A stretch of DNA of 21,383 nucleotides from a virus. The stretch's first letter is position 1, and every line of letters begins with the position of its first letter. Shown here piece by piece: positions 8,416 through 17,827 of this stretch. Location of the stretch: UHGV virus genome UHGV-0126007. One strand, given 5' to 3'. The translations under genes were made by a program, and so were the position numbers. Under the pieces are notes generated by a model that was not told the DNA's origin, did no database searches, and was given only the letters and a program-made list of their open reading frames with translations.

Positions 8416-9105
8416 TTATCCGTGTTTTCTGTACGTCTGCGGCATGCTCCCAATAACCTTACCGAATATGAATACCCGGTTCATCTCGTCTTTCTCGATC
8501 GGGTCCCACGGTGAGTAGCTCTTGTTATCAGAGATAACCAGTAGCTTATCCTTCATCATTTGCAGGCGCTTTACATGGGCGGTGTCGTCATACAGAAACG
8601 CATAGATGCCATCACCGTCGAAAGATTTAACAGTGATATCAACGAACAGCAGGTCACCTGGTTCGATCGTCCCTGACATGCTGTCACCTCGCACGTTAAT
8701 GATGCGGATATTTTCCGCCTTCCTGCCATCGAACATGTGACGAGCATCGTCAAACGAGTACTCAACCGAGCGTAGAACTTCTACAAACTCACGGTTGATT
8801 ACACCTGGCCCGGCACTGACTTCTATATCAAGAACGTCAATTTTGAAGTATTTGGAATGGCTGACAGTTGATTGTATTGGTTGCACTGTACTGTCTGACA
8901 TATTTCCAACGCCAGAAGATAACCATTCTGCGCGTACACCCAAAGCGTTCGCGATCTCCACGATTTTAGTTGTTTGGTTAGCTTTCCCTGTTTCGATTTT
9001 CTGAATAGCAGCCTGGCTAACCCCGACCAAATCCCCAAGCGCCTTTTGTGTAAGGCCTCGCGCTAATCTGGCTTCTTTAAGTCTTTCTGAGAGTGTTGTT
9101 TTCAT
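8416..9105 (-). CDS. CI-like prophage repressor (N-terminal XRE-type HTH, C-terminal S24/LexA-like autopeptidase domain), 229 aa
   Basis: HTH region LTQKALGDLVGVSQAAIQKIETGK; C-terminal domain with the S24 nucleophile motif (NVRGDSMSGTI) and downstream Lys (HVKRL); divergent from a Cro-like gene across an operator region. Confidence 0.85.
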   Translation of the reverse strand: MKTTLSERLKEARLARGLTQKALGDLVGVSQAAIQKIETGKANQTTKIVEIANALGVRAEWLSSGVGNMSDSTVQPIQSTVSHSKYFKIDVLDIEVSAGPGVINREFVEVLRSVEYSFDDARHMFDGRKAENIRIINVRGDSMSGTIEPGDLLFVDITVKSFDGDGIYAFLYDDTAHVKRLQMMKDKLLVISDNKSYSPWDPIEKDEMNRVFIFGKVIGSMPQTYRKHG

Positions 9106-9209
9106 AGATCAAATGTACAACCAAGGTTTTATTTCATCAAACGAAAATGGTTGTTGACTAAAAACAACCATAGTTTTAATCTTGATTCGGATTAACCACG
9201 GAGGTTGTT
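9106..9209. promoter_or_regulatory. OR region: divergent PRM/PR promoters with operators
   Basis: PR: -35 TTGACT (9154-9159), 17-nt spacer, -10 TAATCT (9177-9182). Operator with 9-bp inverted repeat ATGGTTGTT-N7-AACAACCAT (9147-9171) overlapping the -35; SD GGAGG before cro. Confidence 0.65.
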
Positions 9210-9440
9210 ATGAACCCAGCAATCAAAACAGCGATCAATATCGTTGGTTCACAAAAGAAACTAGGCGATGCCTGCGAAGTTTCACAGCAGGCCGTCTATA
9301 AGTGGCTTCACAACAAAGCAAAGGTATCCCCTGAACATGTCGGCAGCATTGTTACGGCTACTGGTGGAGTTGTGAAGGCATACCAGATTCGCCCGGATCT
9401 TCCGAAGTTGTTTCCACACACCGAAAAGAACGCAGCTTAA
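9210..9440 (+). CDS. Cro-like HTH regulator (Cro/YdaS-type), 76 aa
   Basis: Small HTH protein (GDACEVSQQAVYKWL) transcribed divergently from the repressor from the PR-like promoter. Confidence 0.7.
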   Translation: MNPAIKTAINIVGSQKKLGDACEVSQQAVYKWLHNKAKVSPEHVGSIVTATGGVVKAYQIRPDLPKLFPHTEKNAA

Positions 9441-9452
9441 ATTTCCATTTCA

Positions 9453-9465
9453 CGCTCTTTAACAA
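9453..9465 (+). promoter_or_regulatory. boxA-like antitermination element (CGCTCTTTAACAA) in the rightward early transcript
   Basis: Matches the boxA consensus CGCTCTT(T)A and, from recall, nearly the whole rrn boxA (GCTCTTTAACAA) 13 nt after the cro stop; no boxB-like hairpin follows. Confidence 0.5.
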
Positions 9466-9509
9466 TAAGCAATCAACTTAACAGTCAATTCAAACTAAAG
9501 GAGTCAATT

Positions 9510-10049
9510 ATGCAACCACTTACATACCAACAGACTAGCGGATTTATTCCGACTGCGGTGATAAATCGTTCTCAAACAAAACAAGCTCCAGGCCACGAAA
9601 AAATCCGTGATGCCGTCCGCGCCTGGTCGGCTGTAGATAATCAGGATGTCGTTGCCGCACTCATTGTGAATGAGTATCGGGAGCAGGGCGACGGCACCAT
9701 CGATTTCCCTGATGATGTCAGCCGTGCACGCCAGAAGCTGTTCCGCTTCCTCGATAACAAATTCGATTCTGAAAAATACCGAAATAACGTGCGTGAACTG
9801 ACCCCGGCAATTCTGGCGGTACTACCGCTGGAATATCGCGGTTACCTGGTTGAGCAGGATAGCTTCATGACTCGGTTGGCTGAAATGGAAAAGGAACTCA
9901 GTGAGGCAAAACAGGCTGTCATTCTCAACGCACCACGCCACCAGAAACTGAAGGAAATGAGTGAAGGTATTGTGTCGATGTTTCGTGTGGACCCGGATCT
10001 GGCTGGTCCATTAATGGCGATGGTGACCACCATGCTGGGGGCAATATGA
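9510..10049 (+). CDS. Protein in the cII position, 179 aa; possibly a YdaT-family CII analogue
   Basis: Gene order repressor / Cro-like / this ORF / replication genes. Segment TPAILAVLPLEYRGYLV is reminiscent of YdaT-family proteins (weak, memory-based). Not lambda CII. Confidence 0.3.
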   Translation: MQPLTYQQTSGFIPTAVINRSQTKQAPGHEKIRDAVRAWSAVDNQDVVAALIVNEYREQGDGTIDFPDDVSRARQKLFRFLDNKFDSEKYRNNVRELTPAILAVLPLEYRGYLVEQDSFMTRLAEMEKELSEAKQAVILNAPRHQKLKEMSEGIVSMFRVDPDLAGPLMAMVTTMLGAI

Positions 10050-10135
10050 CAGGTCCAGAAATGGCGAAAGTCGGTCTGCGGGAACAGAACCGACTTTCAG
10101 GTGCAAATCGTAACACACTCATTGCGGGAGGAATT

Positions 10136-11065
10136 ATGGCAAACACTGCTGAGATATTCAATTTTCCAGTGCCGGATGCGGCACAAAAGGAGCCGCGCGT
10201 GGCAGATCTCGATGATGGTTATACGCGCATTGCAAATGAGTTGCTGGAAGCTGTGATGCTGGCCGGATTAACACAGCACCAGCTTCTGGTCTTCCTGGCT
10301 GTCATGCGCAAAACATATGGCTTTAATAAAAAACTGGATTGGGTGAGCAACGAGCAACTTTCCGAGTTGACCGGGATATTGCCGCACAAGTGTTCTGCTG
10401 CAAAAAGTGTTCTGGTAAAGCGTGGGATTTTTATTCAGAGCGGGCGGAATATCGGCATTAATAATGTGGTCAGTGAATGGTCAACATTACCCGAATCAGG
10501 TAAGAAAAATAAAGTTTACCTGAAAGAGGTAAATTTACCTGAATCAGGTAAGAAAAGTTTACCCAAATCAGGTAAAGGCACTTACCCGAATCAGGTAAAC
10601 ACAAAAGACAAACTAACAAAAGACAATATAAAACCTTATTCGTCCGAGAATTCTGGCGAATACTCTGACCAGCCAGAAAACGACCTTCCTGTGGTGAAAC
10701 CGGATGCTGCGATTCAGAGCGGCAGCAAGTGGGGGACAGCAGAAGACCTGACCGCCGCAGAGTGGATGTTTGACATGGTGAAGACCATCGCGCCATCAGC
10801 CAGAAAACCGAATTTTGCAGGGTGGGCTAACGATATCCGCCTGATGCGTGAGCGTGACGGGCGTAACCACCGCGATATGTGTGTACTGTTCCGCTGGGCA
10901 TGCCAGGACAACTTCTGGTCCGGTAACGTGCTGAGTCCGGCCAAACTCCGCGACAAGTGGACCCAGCTCGAAATCAACCGAAACAAGCAACAGGCTGGCG
11001 TGACAGCCGGCAAACCAAAACTCGACCTGACGAACACTGACTGGATTTACGGGGTGGATTTATGA
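10136..11065 (+). CDS. O: Replication initiator O: non-lambda N-terminal origin-binding domain with lambda-type C-terminal P-interaction domain; the frame is open from 10046
   Basis: N-terminus MANTAEIFNF...VADLDDGYTRIANELLEA...RKTYGFNK follows the lambda O pattern but is divergent. C-terminus WANDIRLMRERDGRNHRDMCVLFRWACQDNFWSGNVLSPAKLRDKWTQLEINRNKQQAGV...DWIYGVDL matches lambda O. Start preferred at ATG 10136 with SD GGGAGGAA. Confidence 0.85.
   Translation: MANTAEIFNFPVPDAAQKEPRVADLDDGYTRIANELLEAVMLAGLTQHQLLVFLAVMRKTYGFNKKLDWVSNEQLSELTGILPHKCSAAKSVLVKRGIFIQSGRNIGINNVVSEWSTLPESGKKNKVYLKEVNLPESGKKSLPKSGKGTYPNQVNTKDKLTKDNIKPYSSENSGEYSDQPENDLPVVKPDAAIQSGSKWGTAEDLTAAEWMFDMVKTIAPSARKPNFAGWANDIRLMRERDGRNHRDMCVLFRWACQDNFWSGNVLSPAKLRDKWTQLEINRNKQQAGVTAGKPKLDLTNTDWIYGVDL
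10487..10640. repeat. ori: Replication origin inside the O gene: four to five ~18-bp iterons plus adjacent AT-rich region
   Basis: Direct repeats TTACCCGAATCAGGTAAG, TTTACCTGAATCAGGTAAG, TTTACCCAAATCAGGTAAA, CTTACCCGAATCAGGTAAA plus a degenerate copy, each with internal dyad TTACC...GGTAA, followed by ACAAAAGACAAACTAACAAAAGACAATATAAAACC; same layout as lambda ori. Confidence 0.85.
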
Positions 11066-11763
11066 AAAACATCGCCGCACAGATGGTTAACTTTGACCGT
11101 GAGCAGATGCGCCGGATCGCCAACAATATGCTGGAACAGTACGACGAAAAGCCGCAGGTACAGCAGGTAGCGCAGATCATCAACGGTGTGTTCAGCCAGT
11201 TACTGGCAACTTTCCCTGCGAGCCTGGCTAACCGGGATCAGAACGAACTGAACGAAATCCGCCGCCAGTGGGTTCTGGCTTTCCGGGAAAACGGGATCAC
11301 CACAATGGAACAGGTTAACGCAGGAATGCGCGTAGCCCGTCGGCAGAATCGACCATTCCTGCCATCACCCGGGCAGTTTGTTGCATGGTGCCGGGAAGAA
11401 GCATCCGTTATCGCCGGACTGCCAAACGTCAGCGAGCTGGTTGATATGGTTTACGAGTATTGCCGGAAGCGAGGCCTGTATCCGGATGCGGAGTCTTATC
11501 CGTGGAAATCAAACGCGCACTACTGGCTGGTTACCAACCTGTATCAGAACATGCGGGCCAATGCGTTGACTGACGCGGAATTACGGCGCAAGGCTGCCGA
11601 TGAACTGTCCTGTATGACCGCACGAATTAACCGTGGTGAGGCTATACCTGAACCAGTAAAACAACTTCCTGTCATGGGCGGTAGACCACTTAACCGGGCT
11701 CAGGCTCTGGCGAAGATCGCAGAAATCAAAGCTAAGTTCGGACTGAAAGGAGCCAGTGTATGA
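11062..11763 (+). CDS. P: Lambda P replication protein (DnaB helicase loader), 233 aa
   Basis: MKNIAAQMVNFDREQMRRIANNMLEQYDEKPQVQQVAQIINGVFSQLLATFPASLANRDQNELNEIRRQW...AKFGLKGASV matches lambda P; start overlaps O stop. Confidence 0.95.
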   Translation: MKNIAAQMVNFDREQMRRIANNMLEQYDEKPQVQQVAQIINGVFSQLLATFPASLANRDQNELNEIRRQWVLAFRENGITTMEQVNAGMRVARRQNRPFLPSPGQFVAWCREEASVIAGLPNVSELVDMVYEYCRKRGLYPDAESYPWKSNAHYWLVTNLYQNMRANALTDAELRRKAADELSCMTARINRGEAIPEPVKQLPVMGGRPLNRAQALAKIAEIKAKFGLKGASV

Positions 11764-12053
11764 CAGGCAAAGAGGCAATTCTTCACTACCTGAAAACGCA
11801 CCGGACTTTCTGCGCGCCGGATGTAGCTGCGGCAACAGGCGCAACAGTAACCAGCATAAATCAGGCTGCGGCTAAAATGGCGCGGGCAGGAATCTTGGTC
11901 ATTGATGGTAAGGTCTGGCGAACGGTGTATTACAGATTCGCTACCAGGGAAGAACGGGAAGGAAAGGTGAGCACTAACCTGATTTTTAAGGAGTGTCGCC
12001 AGAGTGCCGCGATGAAGCGGGTGTTGATGGTTTGGGGGAGGGTAGGGGTATGA
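11760..12053 (+). CDS. ren: Lambda Ren, 97 aa
   Basis: MTGKEAILHYLKTHRTFCAPDVAAATGATVTSINQAAAKMARAGILVIDGKVWRTVYYRFATREEREGK... closely matches lambda Ren from recall. Confidence 0.85.
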   Translation: MTGKEAILHYLKTHRTFCAPDVAAATGATVTSINQAAAKMARAGILVIDGKVWRTVYYRFATREEREGKVSTNLIFKECRQSAAMKRVLMVWGRVGV

Positions 12054-14682: not shown

Positions 14683-15138
14683 GTGAACCTCCCACAAGAC
14701 GGCATCAAACTACATCGCGGCAACTTCACCGCTATCGGCCAGCAGATCCAGCCTTATCTGGAGGACGGAAAATGCTTTCGCATGGTGCTTAAACCGTGGC
14801 GTGAGAAACGCAGTCTTTCCCAGAATGCACTCAGCCACATGTGGTACAGCGAAATCAGTGAATACCTCATCAGCAGGGGTAAAACGTTCGCCACTCCAGC
14901 TTGGGTAAAAGATGCTCTCAAACACACATATCTCGGTTATGAAACCAAAGACCTGGTTGATGTCGTAACCGGTGATATCACCACTATCCAGTCGTTACGC
15001 CATACCTCCGACCTTGATACCGGAGAGATGTATGTCTTCCTGTGTAAGGTTGAAGCCTGGGCGATGAATATTGGCTGCCACCTGACTATTCCGCAGAGCT
15101 GCGAGTTCCAGCTGCTGCGTGATAAGCAGGAGGCGTAA
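14683..15138 (+). CDS. ybcN: YbcN-like protein (DUF1367, DLP12 ybcN homologue), 151 aa, GTG start
   Basis: [55 protein letters not shown]... recalled as DLP12 YbcN; SD GGAGG upstream of the GTG. Confidence 0.7.
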
Positions 15139-15308
15139 TGGCTACACCGCTTATTCGTGTCATGAACGGACACATCTACAAAGTACCAAATCGTCGTAAG
15201 CGTAAGCCTGAGCTGAAACCATCCGAAATACCAACACTGCTCGGATATACCGCCAGCCTGGTTGATAAAAAATGGTTGCGACTGGCAGCTAGGAGGAATC
15301 ATGGCTGA
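15138..15308 (+). CDS. ninE: NinE-family small protein, 56 aa (below the ORF-track size cutoff)
   Basis: Hand translation from ATG 15138 (overlapping the ybcN stop): [56 protein letters not shown]; basic, NinE-like; its stop overlaps the ybcO start. Confidence 0.6.
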   Translation: MATPLIRVMNGHIYKVPNRRKRKPELKPSEIPTLLGYTASLVDKKWLRLAARRNHG

Positions 15309-15591
15309 TTTGAGAAAAGCAGCGCGTGGTCGGGAATGCCAGGTAAGAATCCCTGGCGTATGTAATGGCAATCCTGAAACGTCTGTACTGGCACATATCC
15401 GGCTGGCTGGATTGTGCGGTACCGGTATCAAACCGCCAGACCTGATTGCCACCATTGCATGTTCTGCCTGTCACGACGAGATCGACCGTCGCACGCATTT
15501 TGTTGACGCTGGATATGCAAAAGAATGCGCGCTGGAAGGTATGGCGAGAACGCAGGTTATCTGGCTGAAAGAGGGGGTAATTAAGGCGTGA
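15301..15591 (+). CDS. ybcO: YbcO-like protein (DUF1364, putative nuclease), 96 aa
   Basis: [64 protein letters not shown]... matches DLP12 YbcO from recall; the frame is open from 15262, ATG 15301 preferred. Confidence 0.75.
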
Positions 15592-15950
15592 ATACCTACA
15601 ATATCACATTACCCTGGCCGCCGAGCAATAATCGCTATTACCGCCATAATCGCGGGCGCACGCACATCAGCGCAGAGGGGCAGGCATACCGCGAAAACGT
15701 CGCCCGAATCATTAAAAACGCAATGCTGGATATCGGCCTGGCTATGCCTGTGAAAATCCGCATTGAGTGTCACATGCCGGATCGCCGTCGCCGTGACCTG
15801 GATAATCTACAAAAGGCCGCTTTTGACGCACTCACCAAAGCAGGTTTCTGGCTGGATGATGCTCAGGTCGTTGATTACCGCGTTGTGAAGATGCCGGTTG
15901 TCAAAGGTGGAAAGCTGGAACTGACCATCACTGAACAGGGAGATGAATGA
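15588..15950 (+). CDS. rusA: RusA Holliday-junction resolvase, 120 aa
   Basis: [100 protein letters not shown]... matches E. coli prophage RusA. Confidence 0.93.
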
Positions 15951-16087
15951 TGTTTGAGTTTTATATGGCAGAACTTCTTCGCCACCGCTGGATGCGCCTG
16001 CGCTTATATCGTTTCCCCGGTTCTGTTTTGACCGATTACCGAATACTGAAGAATTACGCCAAAACACTGACAGGAGCAGGAGTATGA
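15947..16087 (+). CDS. ylcG: YlcG-like small protein, 46 aa (below the ORF-track cutoff)
   Basis: Hand translation [46 protein letters not shown]; start overlaps the rusA stop, as for ylcG between rusA and quuD in DLP12. Confidence 0.55.
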
Positions 16088-16744: not shown

Positions 16745-17827
16745 TTAGAACTGGTAAACCATACCTACAGCAACGATATCATCGGTAGCAACGCCAGATG
16801 CTTTCGTGAAATCGCTCTTATCAATCAGGTTGATTTTGTAGTCAACAAAAGTGGACATATTTTTGTTGAAGTAATAGGTTGCACCTACATCAACATATTC
16901 AACCAGGTCCTGATCACCCCAAACACCCAAGTCTTTTCCTTTAGAATGCAGGTAAGCAACGGATGGACGCAGGCCGAAGTCGAACTGATATTGTGCAACA
17001 GCTTCGAAGTTTTGTGCTTTGTTGGCAATATGGTTATTACCAAAAACAGTCATGTTCTGGGTTTCAGAATAGGTGGTGGCCAGATAGATGTTGTTCGCAT
17101 CATATTTCAGACCAGCTGCCCATACTTCAGCATTTTGACCAGAAGCATTCAGACCGTTGTTACCGTAGATAACCTGATTATTAGTGCGATCAGATTTAGC
17201 ATAGGTTGCACCCACGCCGAATCCTTCATACTCATAAGTAGTTGAGAAACCGAAACCATCGCCATTAGCTTCAGTTACTTCATTTCGGTCATTTTTGCCC
17301 TGATACTGAGCTGCAAAGTTCAGGCCATCAACCAGACCAAAGAAGTCGTTGTTACGATAAGTTGCAACACCTGTGGTGCGACCAGTCATGAATACATCTG
17401 TTTGGGTCCAGGTATCGCCACCGAATTCTGGCAGAACGTCAGTCCACGCACCGATGTCGTATGCTACACCGTAGTTACGGCCGTAATCGATTGAGCCGTA
17501 GTCACCGAATTTCAGGCCTGCAAATGCAAGACGGGTTTTGTCTTTGGAGGAACCTTGAGATTCAGCGCGGTTGCCTTTGAATTCATATTCCCACTGACCG
17601 AAACCAGTCAGTTGATCGTTGATTTGGGTTTCACCTTTGAAGCCAAGACGGGCATAAGTAGTATCACCATCATCTGCATCATTAGAGGAGAAGTAGTGCT
17701 TAGCATTAACTTTCCCGTACAGATCCAGCTTGTTACTGTCTTTATTATAAATTTCAGCTGCCTGAGCAGACATCGCCATCAGTACTGATGCAGCTACAGC
17801 AGAAATTGCCACTGTTAATTTTTTCAT
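16745..17827 (-). CDS. nmpC: Phage-borne general porin of the OmpC/OmpF family (NmpC / Lc type), 360 aa, apparently intact
   Basis: Signal peptide [23 protein letters not shown] then [17 protein letters not shown]...; typical porin beta-strand repeats; C-terminal aromatic (F); same position and orientation as nmpC between quuD and essD in DLP12. Confidence 0.85.

Follow-up and report, generated by a model that had tools for sequence, protein, structure and literature searches.

How should one read a replication initiator gene that follows bacteriophage lambda closely in one part and departs from it in the other? The question is raised by a stretch of 21,383 nucleotides of the virus genome UHGV-0126007 (called here the window), which is 99.8% identical to a prophage of Escherichia coli QDFD216, with 39 mismatches in 21383 nt. 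The initial annotation considered the O-type initiator gene at 10136..11065 of the plus strand to be a chimera, in which a novel origin-specificity domain, together with its iterons, is fused to a C-terminal domain of lambda type. We find that the locus is very probably the ori-O-P replication module of a lambdoid prophage, which would most likely work as in lambda while having a different origin specificity. The mosaic structure of the gene can be documented in detail, but the supposed novelty of its N-terminal half is contradicted by its wide distribution among phages and E. coli genomes.

The O Gene and Its Neighbors

The gene listed among the open reading frames of the window codes for a protein of 309 residues that matches the Pfam family PF04492 (Phage_rep_O) with E=7.5e-34 and a score of 116.6 bits (cut-off, 28.7), the full profile, 1-95, being covered by residues 21-115. 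An in-frame ATG located upstream, at 10046, would extend the protein to 339 residues and is the start chosen by PGAP and some phage annotators. Despite the use of 10046 in PGAP and in one phage record, 10136 is the best start for the gene model, because the M(A/T)NTA motif at this position is also where the homologs of lambda, SEN34, Klebsiella, and Salmonella all start, and because GGAGG sits 7 nt 5' of it. From this start, O is 10 codons longer than lambda O because of one extra iteron. The P gene follows immediately on the plus strand (11062..11763), its start overlapping the stop codon of O, and codes for a DnaB helicase loader of lambda type (PF06992, Phage_lambda_P, E=9.7e-62); the close relationship to lambda P that had been proposed for it is borne out by the identity of 228 of its 233 residues.

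On the other side of O, the list of open reading frames and Pfam identify an S24/HTH repressor resembling CI (8416..9105, minus strand), a YdaS/Cro-like gene (9210..9440) and a gene of the YdaT family (9510..10049) that occupies the slot of lambda cII. All these genes, as well as O and P, are intact in the window. An operator-like palindrome is present at 9147-9171 in one copy only. No Rfam family matches anywhere in the window, which consequently has no annotated oop-like RNA. Since genes like ydaS and ydaT precede O, a link with the Rac prophage was also considered; the ydaU gene of K-12 Rac codes for a DUF1376 protein that is no homolog of O, so the idea of an oriJ relative was dropped.

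In the literature, lambda O is pictured as two domains, one at the N terminus that binds DNA and one at the C terminus that binds P, joined by a flexible linker (PMC6022878). The protein of the window has the same predicted architecture in an AlphaFold model of its 309 residues based on an alignment of 30 sequences. Its N-terminal origin-recognition domain, covered by the Phage_rep_O profile (residues 21-115, encoded by 10196..10480 of the plus strand), has a predicted winged-helix fold in residues 30-118, with the succession H-H-H-H-beta-beta and pLDDT values of 66-86. Residues 119-197 have a pLDDT below 50 and form a predicted disordered linker, while residues 198-288 are modeled as an all-helical domain with pLDDT of about 90. 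The lambda-type C-terminal part of O (10641..11065, plus strand) thus comprises the remainder of the linker and this helical domain, from about residue 198 to 288, which presumably binds P, a role assigned to it from the literature on lambda O (PMC6022878). No sequence relatives of O are found in the PDB at E<=1. A Foldseek search of the PDB yielded a best, nonsignificant E=0.046, and all its matches are DNA-binding proteins with a winged helix-turn-helix, namely of the CRP/FNR, MarR, and IclR families and a Rep-DNA complex; they are compatible with a fold of this kind in the N-terminal domain, short of proof.

Five Iterons within the Coding Sequence

The middle of the O gene contains five direct repeats, with starts at 10487, 10516, 10535, 10559, and 10582 and hence a spacing of 29, 19, 24, and 23 bp. 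All five are perfect palindromes of 5+5 bp, TTACC-N7-GGTAA, with a spacer of 7 bp rich in A/T. Iterons 1 (10487..10503) and 5 (10582..10598) have the sequence TTACCCGAATCAGGTAA, in agreement with the consensus TTACCCGAATCAGGTAAG given previously, which is correct for these two copies; iteron 2 (10516..10532) is TTACCTGAAAGAGGTAA, iteron 3 (10535..10551) is TTACCTGAATCAGGTAA, and iteron 4 (10559..10575) is TTACCCAAATCAGGTAA. The pattern TTACCNNAANNAGGTAA matches on the plus strand of the 21-kb window exclusively at these five sites, a sixth match being the minus-strand image of the site at 10535. The expectation from dinucleotide shuffles is 0.04 matches, and none of 100 shuffles reaches six. 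The arrangement of palindromic iterons in the middle of the gene, followed by an AT-rich stretch, is the origin-in-initiator-gene layout of the Phage_rep_O family; lambda O likewise contains an AT-rich region preceded by four iterons (PMC5043065).

Do these repeats act as DNA sites, or do they simply reflect a repetitive peptide? They encode residues 118-155, within the predicted disordered segment rich in K, S, G, and P, so that they could in principle be a low-complexity linker of LPESGKK-like peptides devoid of any role as DNA sites. However, the same 17-mer is read in two frames: copies 1 and 3 (frame 0) code for LPESGK and copy 4 (frame 0) for LPKSGK, whereas copies 2 and 5 (frame +2), two of the five, code for the unrelated peptides (V)YLKEVN and YPNQVN. 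The perfect palindrome retained in each copy also goes against a peptide repeat, as does the conservation of the repeat DNA above that of the flanking coding sequence across genera. In the Xenorhabdus homolog, which likewise uses two reading frames for its iterons, the four shared copies are identical in 64 of 68 positions (about 94%) versus 66% for the DNA of the N-domain; for Klebsiella phage ST11-VIM1phi8.2, identity to the window is 91% in the iterons, as compared with 79% in the N-domain and 59% in the spacers that separate the iterons. Iteron 1 is missing from the Xenorhabdus homolog and degenerate in that of Klebsiella. Moreover, the position, number, and spacing (24 and 23 bp) of the repeats and the adjoining AT-rich stretch all match the lambda origin, again contrary to what a mere peptide repeat would entail. 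We therefore regard a peptide without DNA function as highly improbable. The reading in two frames, combined with a conservation of the iteron DNA that exceeds that of the N-domain coding DNA across genera, points to repeats constrained as DNA sites.

A Sharp Junction in the AT-Rich Stretch

The next question is where, and how abruptly, the gene becomes lambda-like. DNA identity to lambda is 53% in the region coding for the N-domain (10136-10486) and 40% in the iterons (10487-10598); it then rises to 79% in the AT-rich stretch (10599-10640), to 95% in the rest of O (10641-11065) and remains at 95% in P (11062-11763). The N-terminal half of O and its iterons are thus different from those of lambda, as previously claimed, with an identity of about 45-46% also at the protein level; conversely, the last 141 residues (approximately 169-309) are about 98% identical. 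The lambda-like part had been described as the last about 100 residues: the close match stands, but it extends over the final 141-155 residues, beginning near position 155-169.

Alternatively, O might have diverged uniformly from lambda O, without any recombination junction. Against this, a two-segment change-point likelihood scan of the alignment to lambda places a single step at 10635, with a support interval of 4 nt (10635-10638), identity being 52% up to this point and 95% beyond it (2*delta-lnL = 406). When lambda-type phages and genomes are aligned by megablast, moreover, all alignments start at query position 451-464, corresponding to 10586-10599 of the window, namely at the end of iteron 5. 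Uniform divergence is refuted by this step, and we give it practically no credence; the sharp breakpoint foreseen in the initial annotation is the pattern that we see. Its proposed location at the interdomain linker of O is equally sustained: the junction falls just to the right of the last iteron and in the middle of the predicted linker (residues 119-197), given that the iterons and the AT-rich stretch, which encodes residues 155-169, both lie inside the segment of low pLDDT.

The junction is marked by the AT-rich region itself (10599..10640), the presumed DNA-unwinding element, with the core ACACAAAAGACAAACTAACAAAAGACAATA. This core, in the form CACAAAAGACA...ACAAAAGA, lies right after the last iteron in all eight of the O/gp18 genes compared (window, lambda, SEN34, Klebsiella, Xenorhabdus, Enterobacter, Providencia, and P22), whatever flanks it to the left or to the right. 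It encodes a T-K-D...K motif, of which T156, K157, D158, and K162 are invariant in 12/12 aligned proteins. From this conservation, we infer that the core may be retained for origin opening, and that it may also supply the short stretch of homology used for recombination between modules. As a joint it is a candidate, the alternative being that it is kept merely for unwinding.

Exchange of Modules among Relatives

In evolutionary terms, a step in identity relative to a single reference leads to a further question: Do the two parts of the gene also occur in other combinations? The N-domain of the window has 46% amino acid identity with lambda O, 65% with P22 gp18 (residues 19-117) and 79% with the O protein of the Klebsiella phage. 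Comparison of the iterons follows the same lines and confirms that the type found here differs from those of lambda, SEN34, and P22: lambda has TCCCTC-N6-GAGGGA, SEN34 has TTAGC-N7-GCTAA, P22 shares TTACC-N5-GGTAA with Enterobacter and Providencia, and the window shares TTACC-N7-GGTAA with Klebsiella and Xenorhabdus. Among the O/gp18 genes compared, the type of iteron tracks that of the N-domain. The C-domain type, in turn, tracks the downstream gene, for the lambda-type C-domain of the window, lambda, and SEN34 is followed by P, the type B of Klebsiella, Xenorhabdus, and Salmonella by a gene for a DnaC/IstB-like AAA+ protein, and the type C of P22, Enterobacter, and Providencia by a gene for a DnaB-like helicase.

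The resemblance to the ori-O-P region of lambda includes the gene order, the protein family and the origin placed inside O, where palindromic iterons precede an AT-rich stretch; the spacing of 24 and 23 bp between the last three iterons is that of lambda iterons 2-3 and 3-4, and identity reaches about 98% in the C-terminal 141 residues of O and 98% in P. A lambda-type C-domain with an adjacent P gene is the composition of the lambda helicase-loading pair, to which the locus can be assigned. In contrast, the N-domain is only about 46% identical, five TTACC-N7-GGTAA iterons replace the four copies of (A)TCCCTC-N6-GAGGGA, and a YdaT-family gene, not cII, lies upstream. Lacking ATCCCTCAAAACGAGGGA iterons and with an N-domain identity of 46%, the locus does not belong to the lambda specificity type (rep-lambda) but to a distinct type within the same family.

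The closest classical N-domain is that of P22 gene 18, with its origin and gene 12, together with the Enterobacter and Providencia relatives, which share with the window both the half-sites TTACC/GGTAA and the AT-rich core CACAAAAGACAATA. Yet the P22 spacer is 5 bp long as compared with 7 bp in the window, and its C-domain is of another type and precedes a DnaB-like helicase rather than P. With a lambda-type C-domain, P as the next gene and a spacer of 7 bp, the window falls outside the P22 gene 18/gene 12 type. Klebsiella phage ST11-VIM1phi8.2 and the Xenorhabdus and Salmonella prophages resemble it in having N-domains with 72-84% amino acid identity, TTACC-N7-GGTAA iterons, four of which are clearly present, and the same AT-rich junction; unlike the window, they have an unrelated C-domain, followed by a DnaC/IstB-like AAA+ loader without P.

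Consequently, the N-domain and iteron module of the window is found paired with two different modules of C-domain and loader, and the module of lambda-type C-domain and P with at least three modules of N-domain and iterons, a count that leaves out the set of protein homologs, mostly partial (<=271 aa). Such double reassortment is direct evidence, drawn from comparison, that modules have been exchanged at the junction. Recombination between modules, as the initial annotation had suggested, finds independent support in the Klebsiella and Xenorhabdus elements, where the N-domain and iterons of the window type are joined to a different C-domain and accompanied by a DnaC-like loader. Phage D2 (OM475427) appeared to be a second hybrid, with a window-type N-terminus up to nt 246 and a lambda-type sequence thereafter; its O gene is frameshifted in a record labeled 'partial genome', and it was discarded.

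The N-domain and its iterons make up one specificity module inherited as a unit, the nearest classical relative of which is P22 gene 18/ori and not lambda, while the C-domain and P make up a second module with about 95% DNA identity to lambda. The two meet in the AT-rich stretch coding for the linker, the conservation of which across otherwise unrelated O/gp18 types suggests a patch of homology for recombination. A more specific scenario is conceivable, which we advance tentatively and consider somewhat doubtful: TTACC-N7-GGTAA might be an experimentally uncharacterized specificity type, derived from the N5 of P22 type by a 2-bp change in spacing with matching changes in the winged helix, and the core of approximately 30 bp, ACACAAAAGACAA...ACAAAAGA, might serve as both unwinding element and universal homologous joint among the modules depending on P, DnaC-like, or DnaB-like proteins.

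Prevalence and Previous Knowledge of the Window Type

Is this combination new? The full-length O gene is found in 15 phage records at 96.6-98% DNA identity over 100% of its length, and all 15 annotate the gene as replication protein O; the phages include PhiR30_1, Lambda_4C10, 4A7, 1W, 3W, Perceval, Turner, and IdasGreatGrand. The N-domain plus iterons are present in 16 phage records, with the same five iterons and an identity of 97.7-100%. The genus Bievrevirus is given in two of the records with the same O, and several name E. coli C or K-12 as propagation host; such propagation implies that the module works in viable phages. Phages 4A7, Lambda_4C10, Perceval, 1W, 3W, and the PhiR26_1/PhiR30_1 series also share with the window an identical O-P arrangement, upstream genes resembling YdaS/YdaT and an 82-like nin/Q region. 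The Escherichia phages with the same O are complete, whereas the prophage of the window is apparently without virion genes.

Among 5426 complete E. coli genomes, 2295 have the N-domain plus iterons at a coverage of at least 80% and 2308 (about 40%) the whole O-P pair, while approximately 1300 others match only to the right of the junction, with another type of N-domain joined to the same C-domain and P. The O-P combination of the window is therefore the commonest in complete E. coli genomes, above the N-terminal type of lambda itself. The N-domain and iteron type of the window is also present in elements of Klebsiella, Salmonella, and Xenorhabdus, and the matches in E. coli include strains of pathogenic E. 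coli O104:H4, O157:H7, and O103.

The literature offers a precedent for the principle. Intragenic hybrids of O between lambda and 82 and between lambda and phi80, together with the two-domain organization of O, go back to Furth and Yates (1978) and Moore et al. (1979), both cited in PMC6022878 and PMC5043065. For the iteron itself, a full-text search with the two commonest 17-mer variants gave 0 matches, and we found no paper describing TTACC-N7-GGTAA. This absence, along with the difference of the N-domain and iterons from lambda, is what could be said in favor of a novel specificity domain newly made by recombination with a lambda-type C-domain. The same type, however, is present in 15-16 phage genomes and in 2295-2308 of 5426 E. 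coli genomes, besides Klebsiella, Salmonella, and Xenorhabdus, and the mosaic principle is classical (PMC6022878), so that a newly made chimera is very improbable.

The attribute 'novel' must accordingly be abandoned for both domain and iterons: the allele is already known and annotated, and the principle of modular lambdoid replication dates from the late 1970s. The term 'chimeric' can be retained in a restricted sense, for a mosaic of two modules relative to lambda. It reflects the choice of lambda as the reference, the combination of the window being commoner in E. coli, and it would indicate neither the ancestral combination nor the direction or number of recombination events.

A possible connection with phage 82 deserves separate mention. 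In this phage the iterons and the N-terminal specificity of O are its own, not those of lambda, whereas the C-terminal half of O and P are common to both. The nin/rusA region of the window and record X92588.1 of phage 82 share 95.8% identity, a lead suggesting that the window may simply carry the classical 82-type origin. There are no phage 82 records among the N-domain matches at 95% identity or more.

Working of the Module and Its State in This Prophage

To judge from the homology to lambda, O would bind the five palindromic iterons within its own gene through dimers of its N-terminal winged helix, and the resulting nucleoprotein complex, or O-some, would bend the DNA and open the adjoining AT-rich region at 10599-10640. 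Iteron binding and AT-rich opening are described for lambda in PMC5043065 and the domain roles in PMC6022878. The C-domain of lambda type would then dock the P-DnaB complex, from which host chaperones would release DnaB, while rightward transcription from a promoter between the repressor and cro-like genes would supply O and P and activate the origin. Because the C-domain and P are of lambda type, it is reasonable to infer that the contact between O and P and the recruitment of DnaB are kept.

Does any of this occur in the present genome? The anatomy could be right and the module nevertheless be an inactive relic of a defective prophage, in which nothing fires. The window extends from int as far as the lysis genes, directly after which come trkG and a ynaK fragment, without virion genes, and one neighboring gene is frameshifted in the nearly identical QDFD216 locus. 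With its lysis genes abutting trkG, the prophage looks defective, and its replication module may therefore be silent in this host. On the other hand, neither O nor P is disrupted, both seem to be under constraint, and plaque-forming phages have alleles of the two genes with 97-98% identity to those of the window; the genes for the repressor and for the Cro-like and YdaT-like proteins are undamaged as well. Defective prophages such as Rac, furthermore, retain a working origin (oriJ), which also counts against a relic. On balance, we consider an inactive relic unlikely, while giving it more weight than the other alternatives to a working module of lambda type.

Implications

The locus is best regarded as a clear and very widespread illustration of the modularity of lambdoid replication genes, and carries little weight as a discovery. 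It offers a teaching example of how a coding region is constrained by a DNA-binding site, with one DNA motif read in two frames. For the typing of prophage replication modules in E. coli, pathogenic strains included, the window type is useful. Its predicted origin specificity is distinct from those of both lambda and P22, and its P protein should be interchangeable with lambda P. Prophages with a window-type O should be blind to origin interference of the lambda type, while they should share the P-dependent needs of lambda for the host proteins DnaB and DnaK/DnaJ/GrpE.

Constant and variable segments of O

In the array of palindromes embedded in O (10487-10598), copies of a single iteron DNA motif are read in two different frames, giving LPESGK/LPKSGK in one and YLKEVN/YPNQVN in the other, and the Xenorhabdus homologue (L009) likewise translates its motif in two frames. 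The AT-rich core that follows, CACAAAAGACA...ACAAAAGA (10599-10640), is retained 3' of the iterons in each of the eight O/gp18-type genes that we compared, namely that of the window and those of the loci L001, L004, L006, L009, L010, L011 and L012, which cover lambda, SEN34, Klebsiella, Xenorhabdus, Enterobacter, Providencia and P22. This core, which encodes an invariant T-K-D...K motif, remains constant although the iterons to its left differ and the C-domains to its right belong to three unrelated types. In the O gene of Escherichia phage D2 (L005, OM475427.1, 1411-2432), the first 246 nt match the N-terminus of the window's O at 99.6% identity, after which the gene continues into other sequence. 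A frameshift splits the D2 gene into two CDSs, and its record carries the label 'partial genome'; the gene could be a second intragenic hybrid, or else an artefact of assembly.

Upstream genes, putative control elements and the start of O

The region preceding O (9210-10049) carries a YdaS-family gene in the position of cro (E=6.6e-17) and a YdaT-family gene in the position of cII (E=4.3e-30), the same arrangement as in the Rac prophage; Rac then has ydaU/ydaV as replication genes, whereas in the window the YdaT-family gene is followed by genes of lambda O/P type. Between the repressor and the cro-like gene lies a palindrome with perfect 9-bp arms, ATGGTTGTT-N7-AACAACCAT (9147-9171), which has only one full copy in the window, with half-sites resembling ACAACC close by; it is probably an operator.

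The start of O itself admits two annotations. An ATG at 10046, in frame with O, overlaps the stop codon of the YdaT-like gene (ATGA) and would give a protein of 339 aa, as annotated by PGAP and in one phage record; the resulting 30-residue extension (10046-10135) has no counterpart in the O proteins of lambda, SEN34, Klebsiella and Salmonella. On the minus strand, a promoter-like site, TTGAAT-17-(TG)CATAAT (10133-10161), overlaps the O start codon. To the left of this site there is a strong hairpin, GAAAGUCGGU...ACCGACUUUC, with GCCAUUUCU after it (10066-10098); the folding of the 94-nt stretch containing this hairpin has z=-4.3. Place and orientation are those of lambda pO/oop, and the two elements mark a candidate oop-like antisense RNA, for which a search of the window against Rfam returned no match. 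Lambda oop is antisense to the 3' part of the gene preceding O, which in the window is of the YdaT family.

Possible mosaicism downstream of O and the probable nature of the prophage

Within P, DNA identity to lambda drops to 78-87% over the segment 11546-11665, as against 95-100% on either side; at the protein level this segment brings just two changes, ELSCMTAR versus ELVHMTAR. The pattern is suggestive of another small patch of mosaic origin or gene conversion. After P comes a Ren-like gene (11760-12053) with 88% aa identity to lambda Ren, annotated as "hypothetical protein" in the near-identical QDFD216 record. Further on, the ybcN-ninE-ybcO-rusA region (14683-16077) shares 95.8% identity with phage 82 (record X92588.1), and the entire stretch from ybcN to Q is common to the phages having the window's O allele.

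The window corresponds to 2966351-2987733, reverse strand, of E. coli QDFD216 (NZ_CP053211.1). Its genes are arranged in the order int-xis...exo-bet-gam-kil, repressor, O-P, nin/rusA/Q, an ompC-like porin gene on the minus strand (16745-17827) and lysis genes. These last directly abut trkG and a fragment of ynaK, both belonging to the Rac locus. There are no virion genes in the window, and therefore its gene content points to what is probably a defective prophage at the Rac site, the early regions of which would have been replaced.
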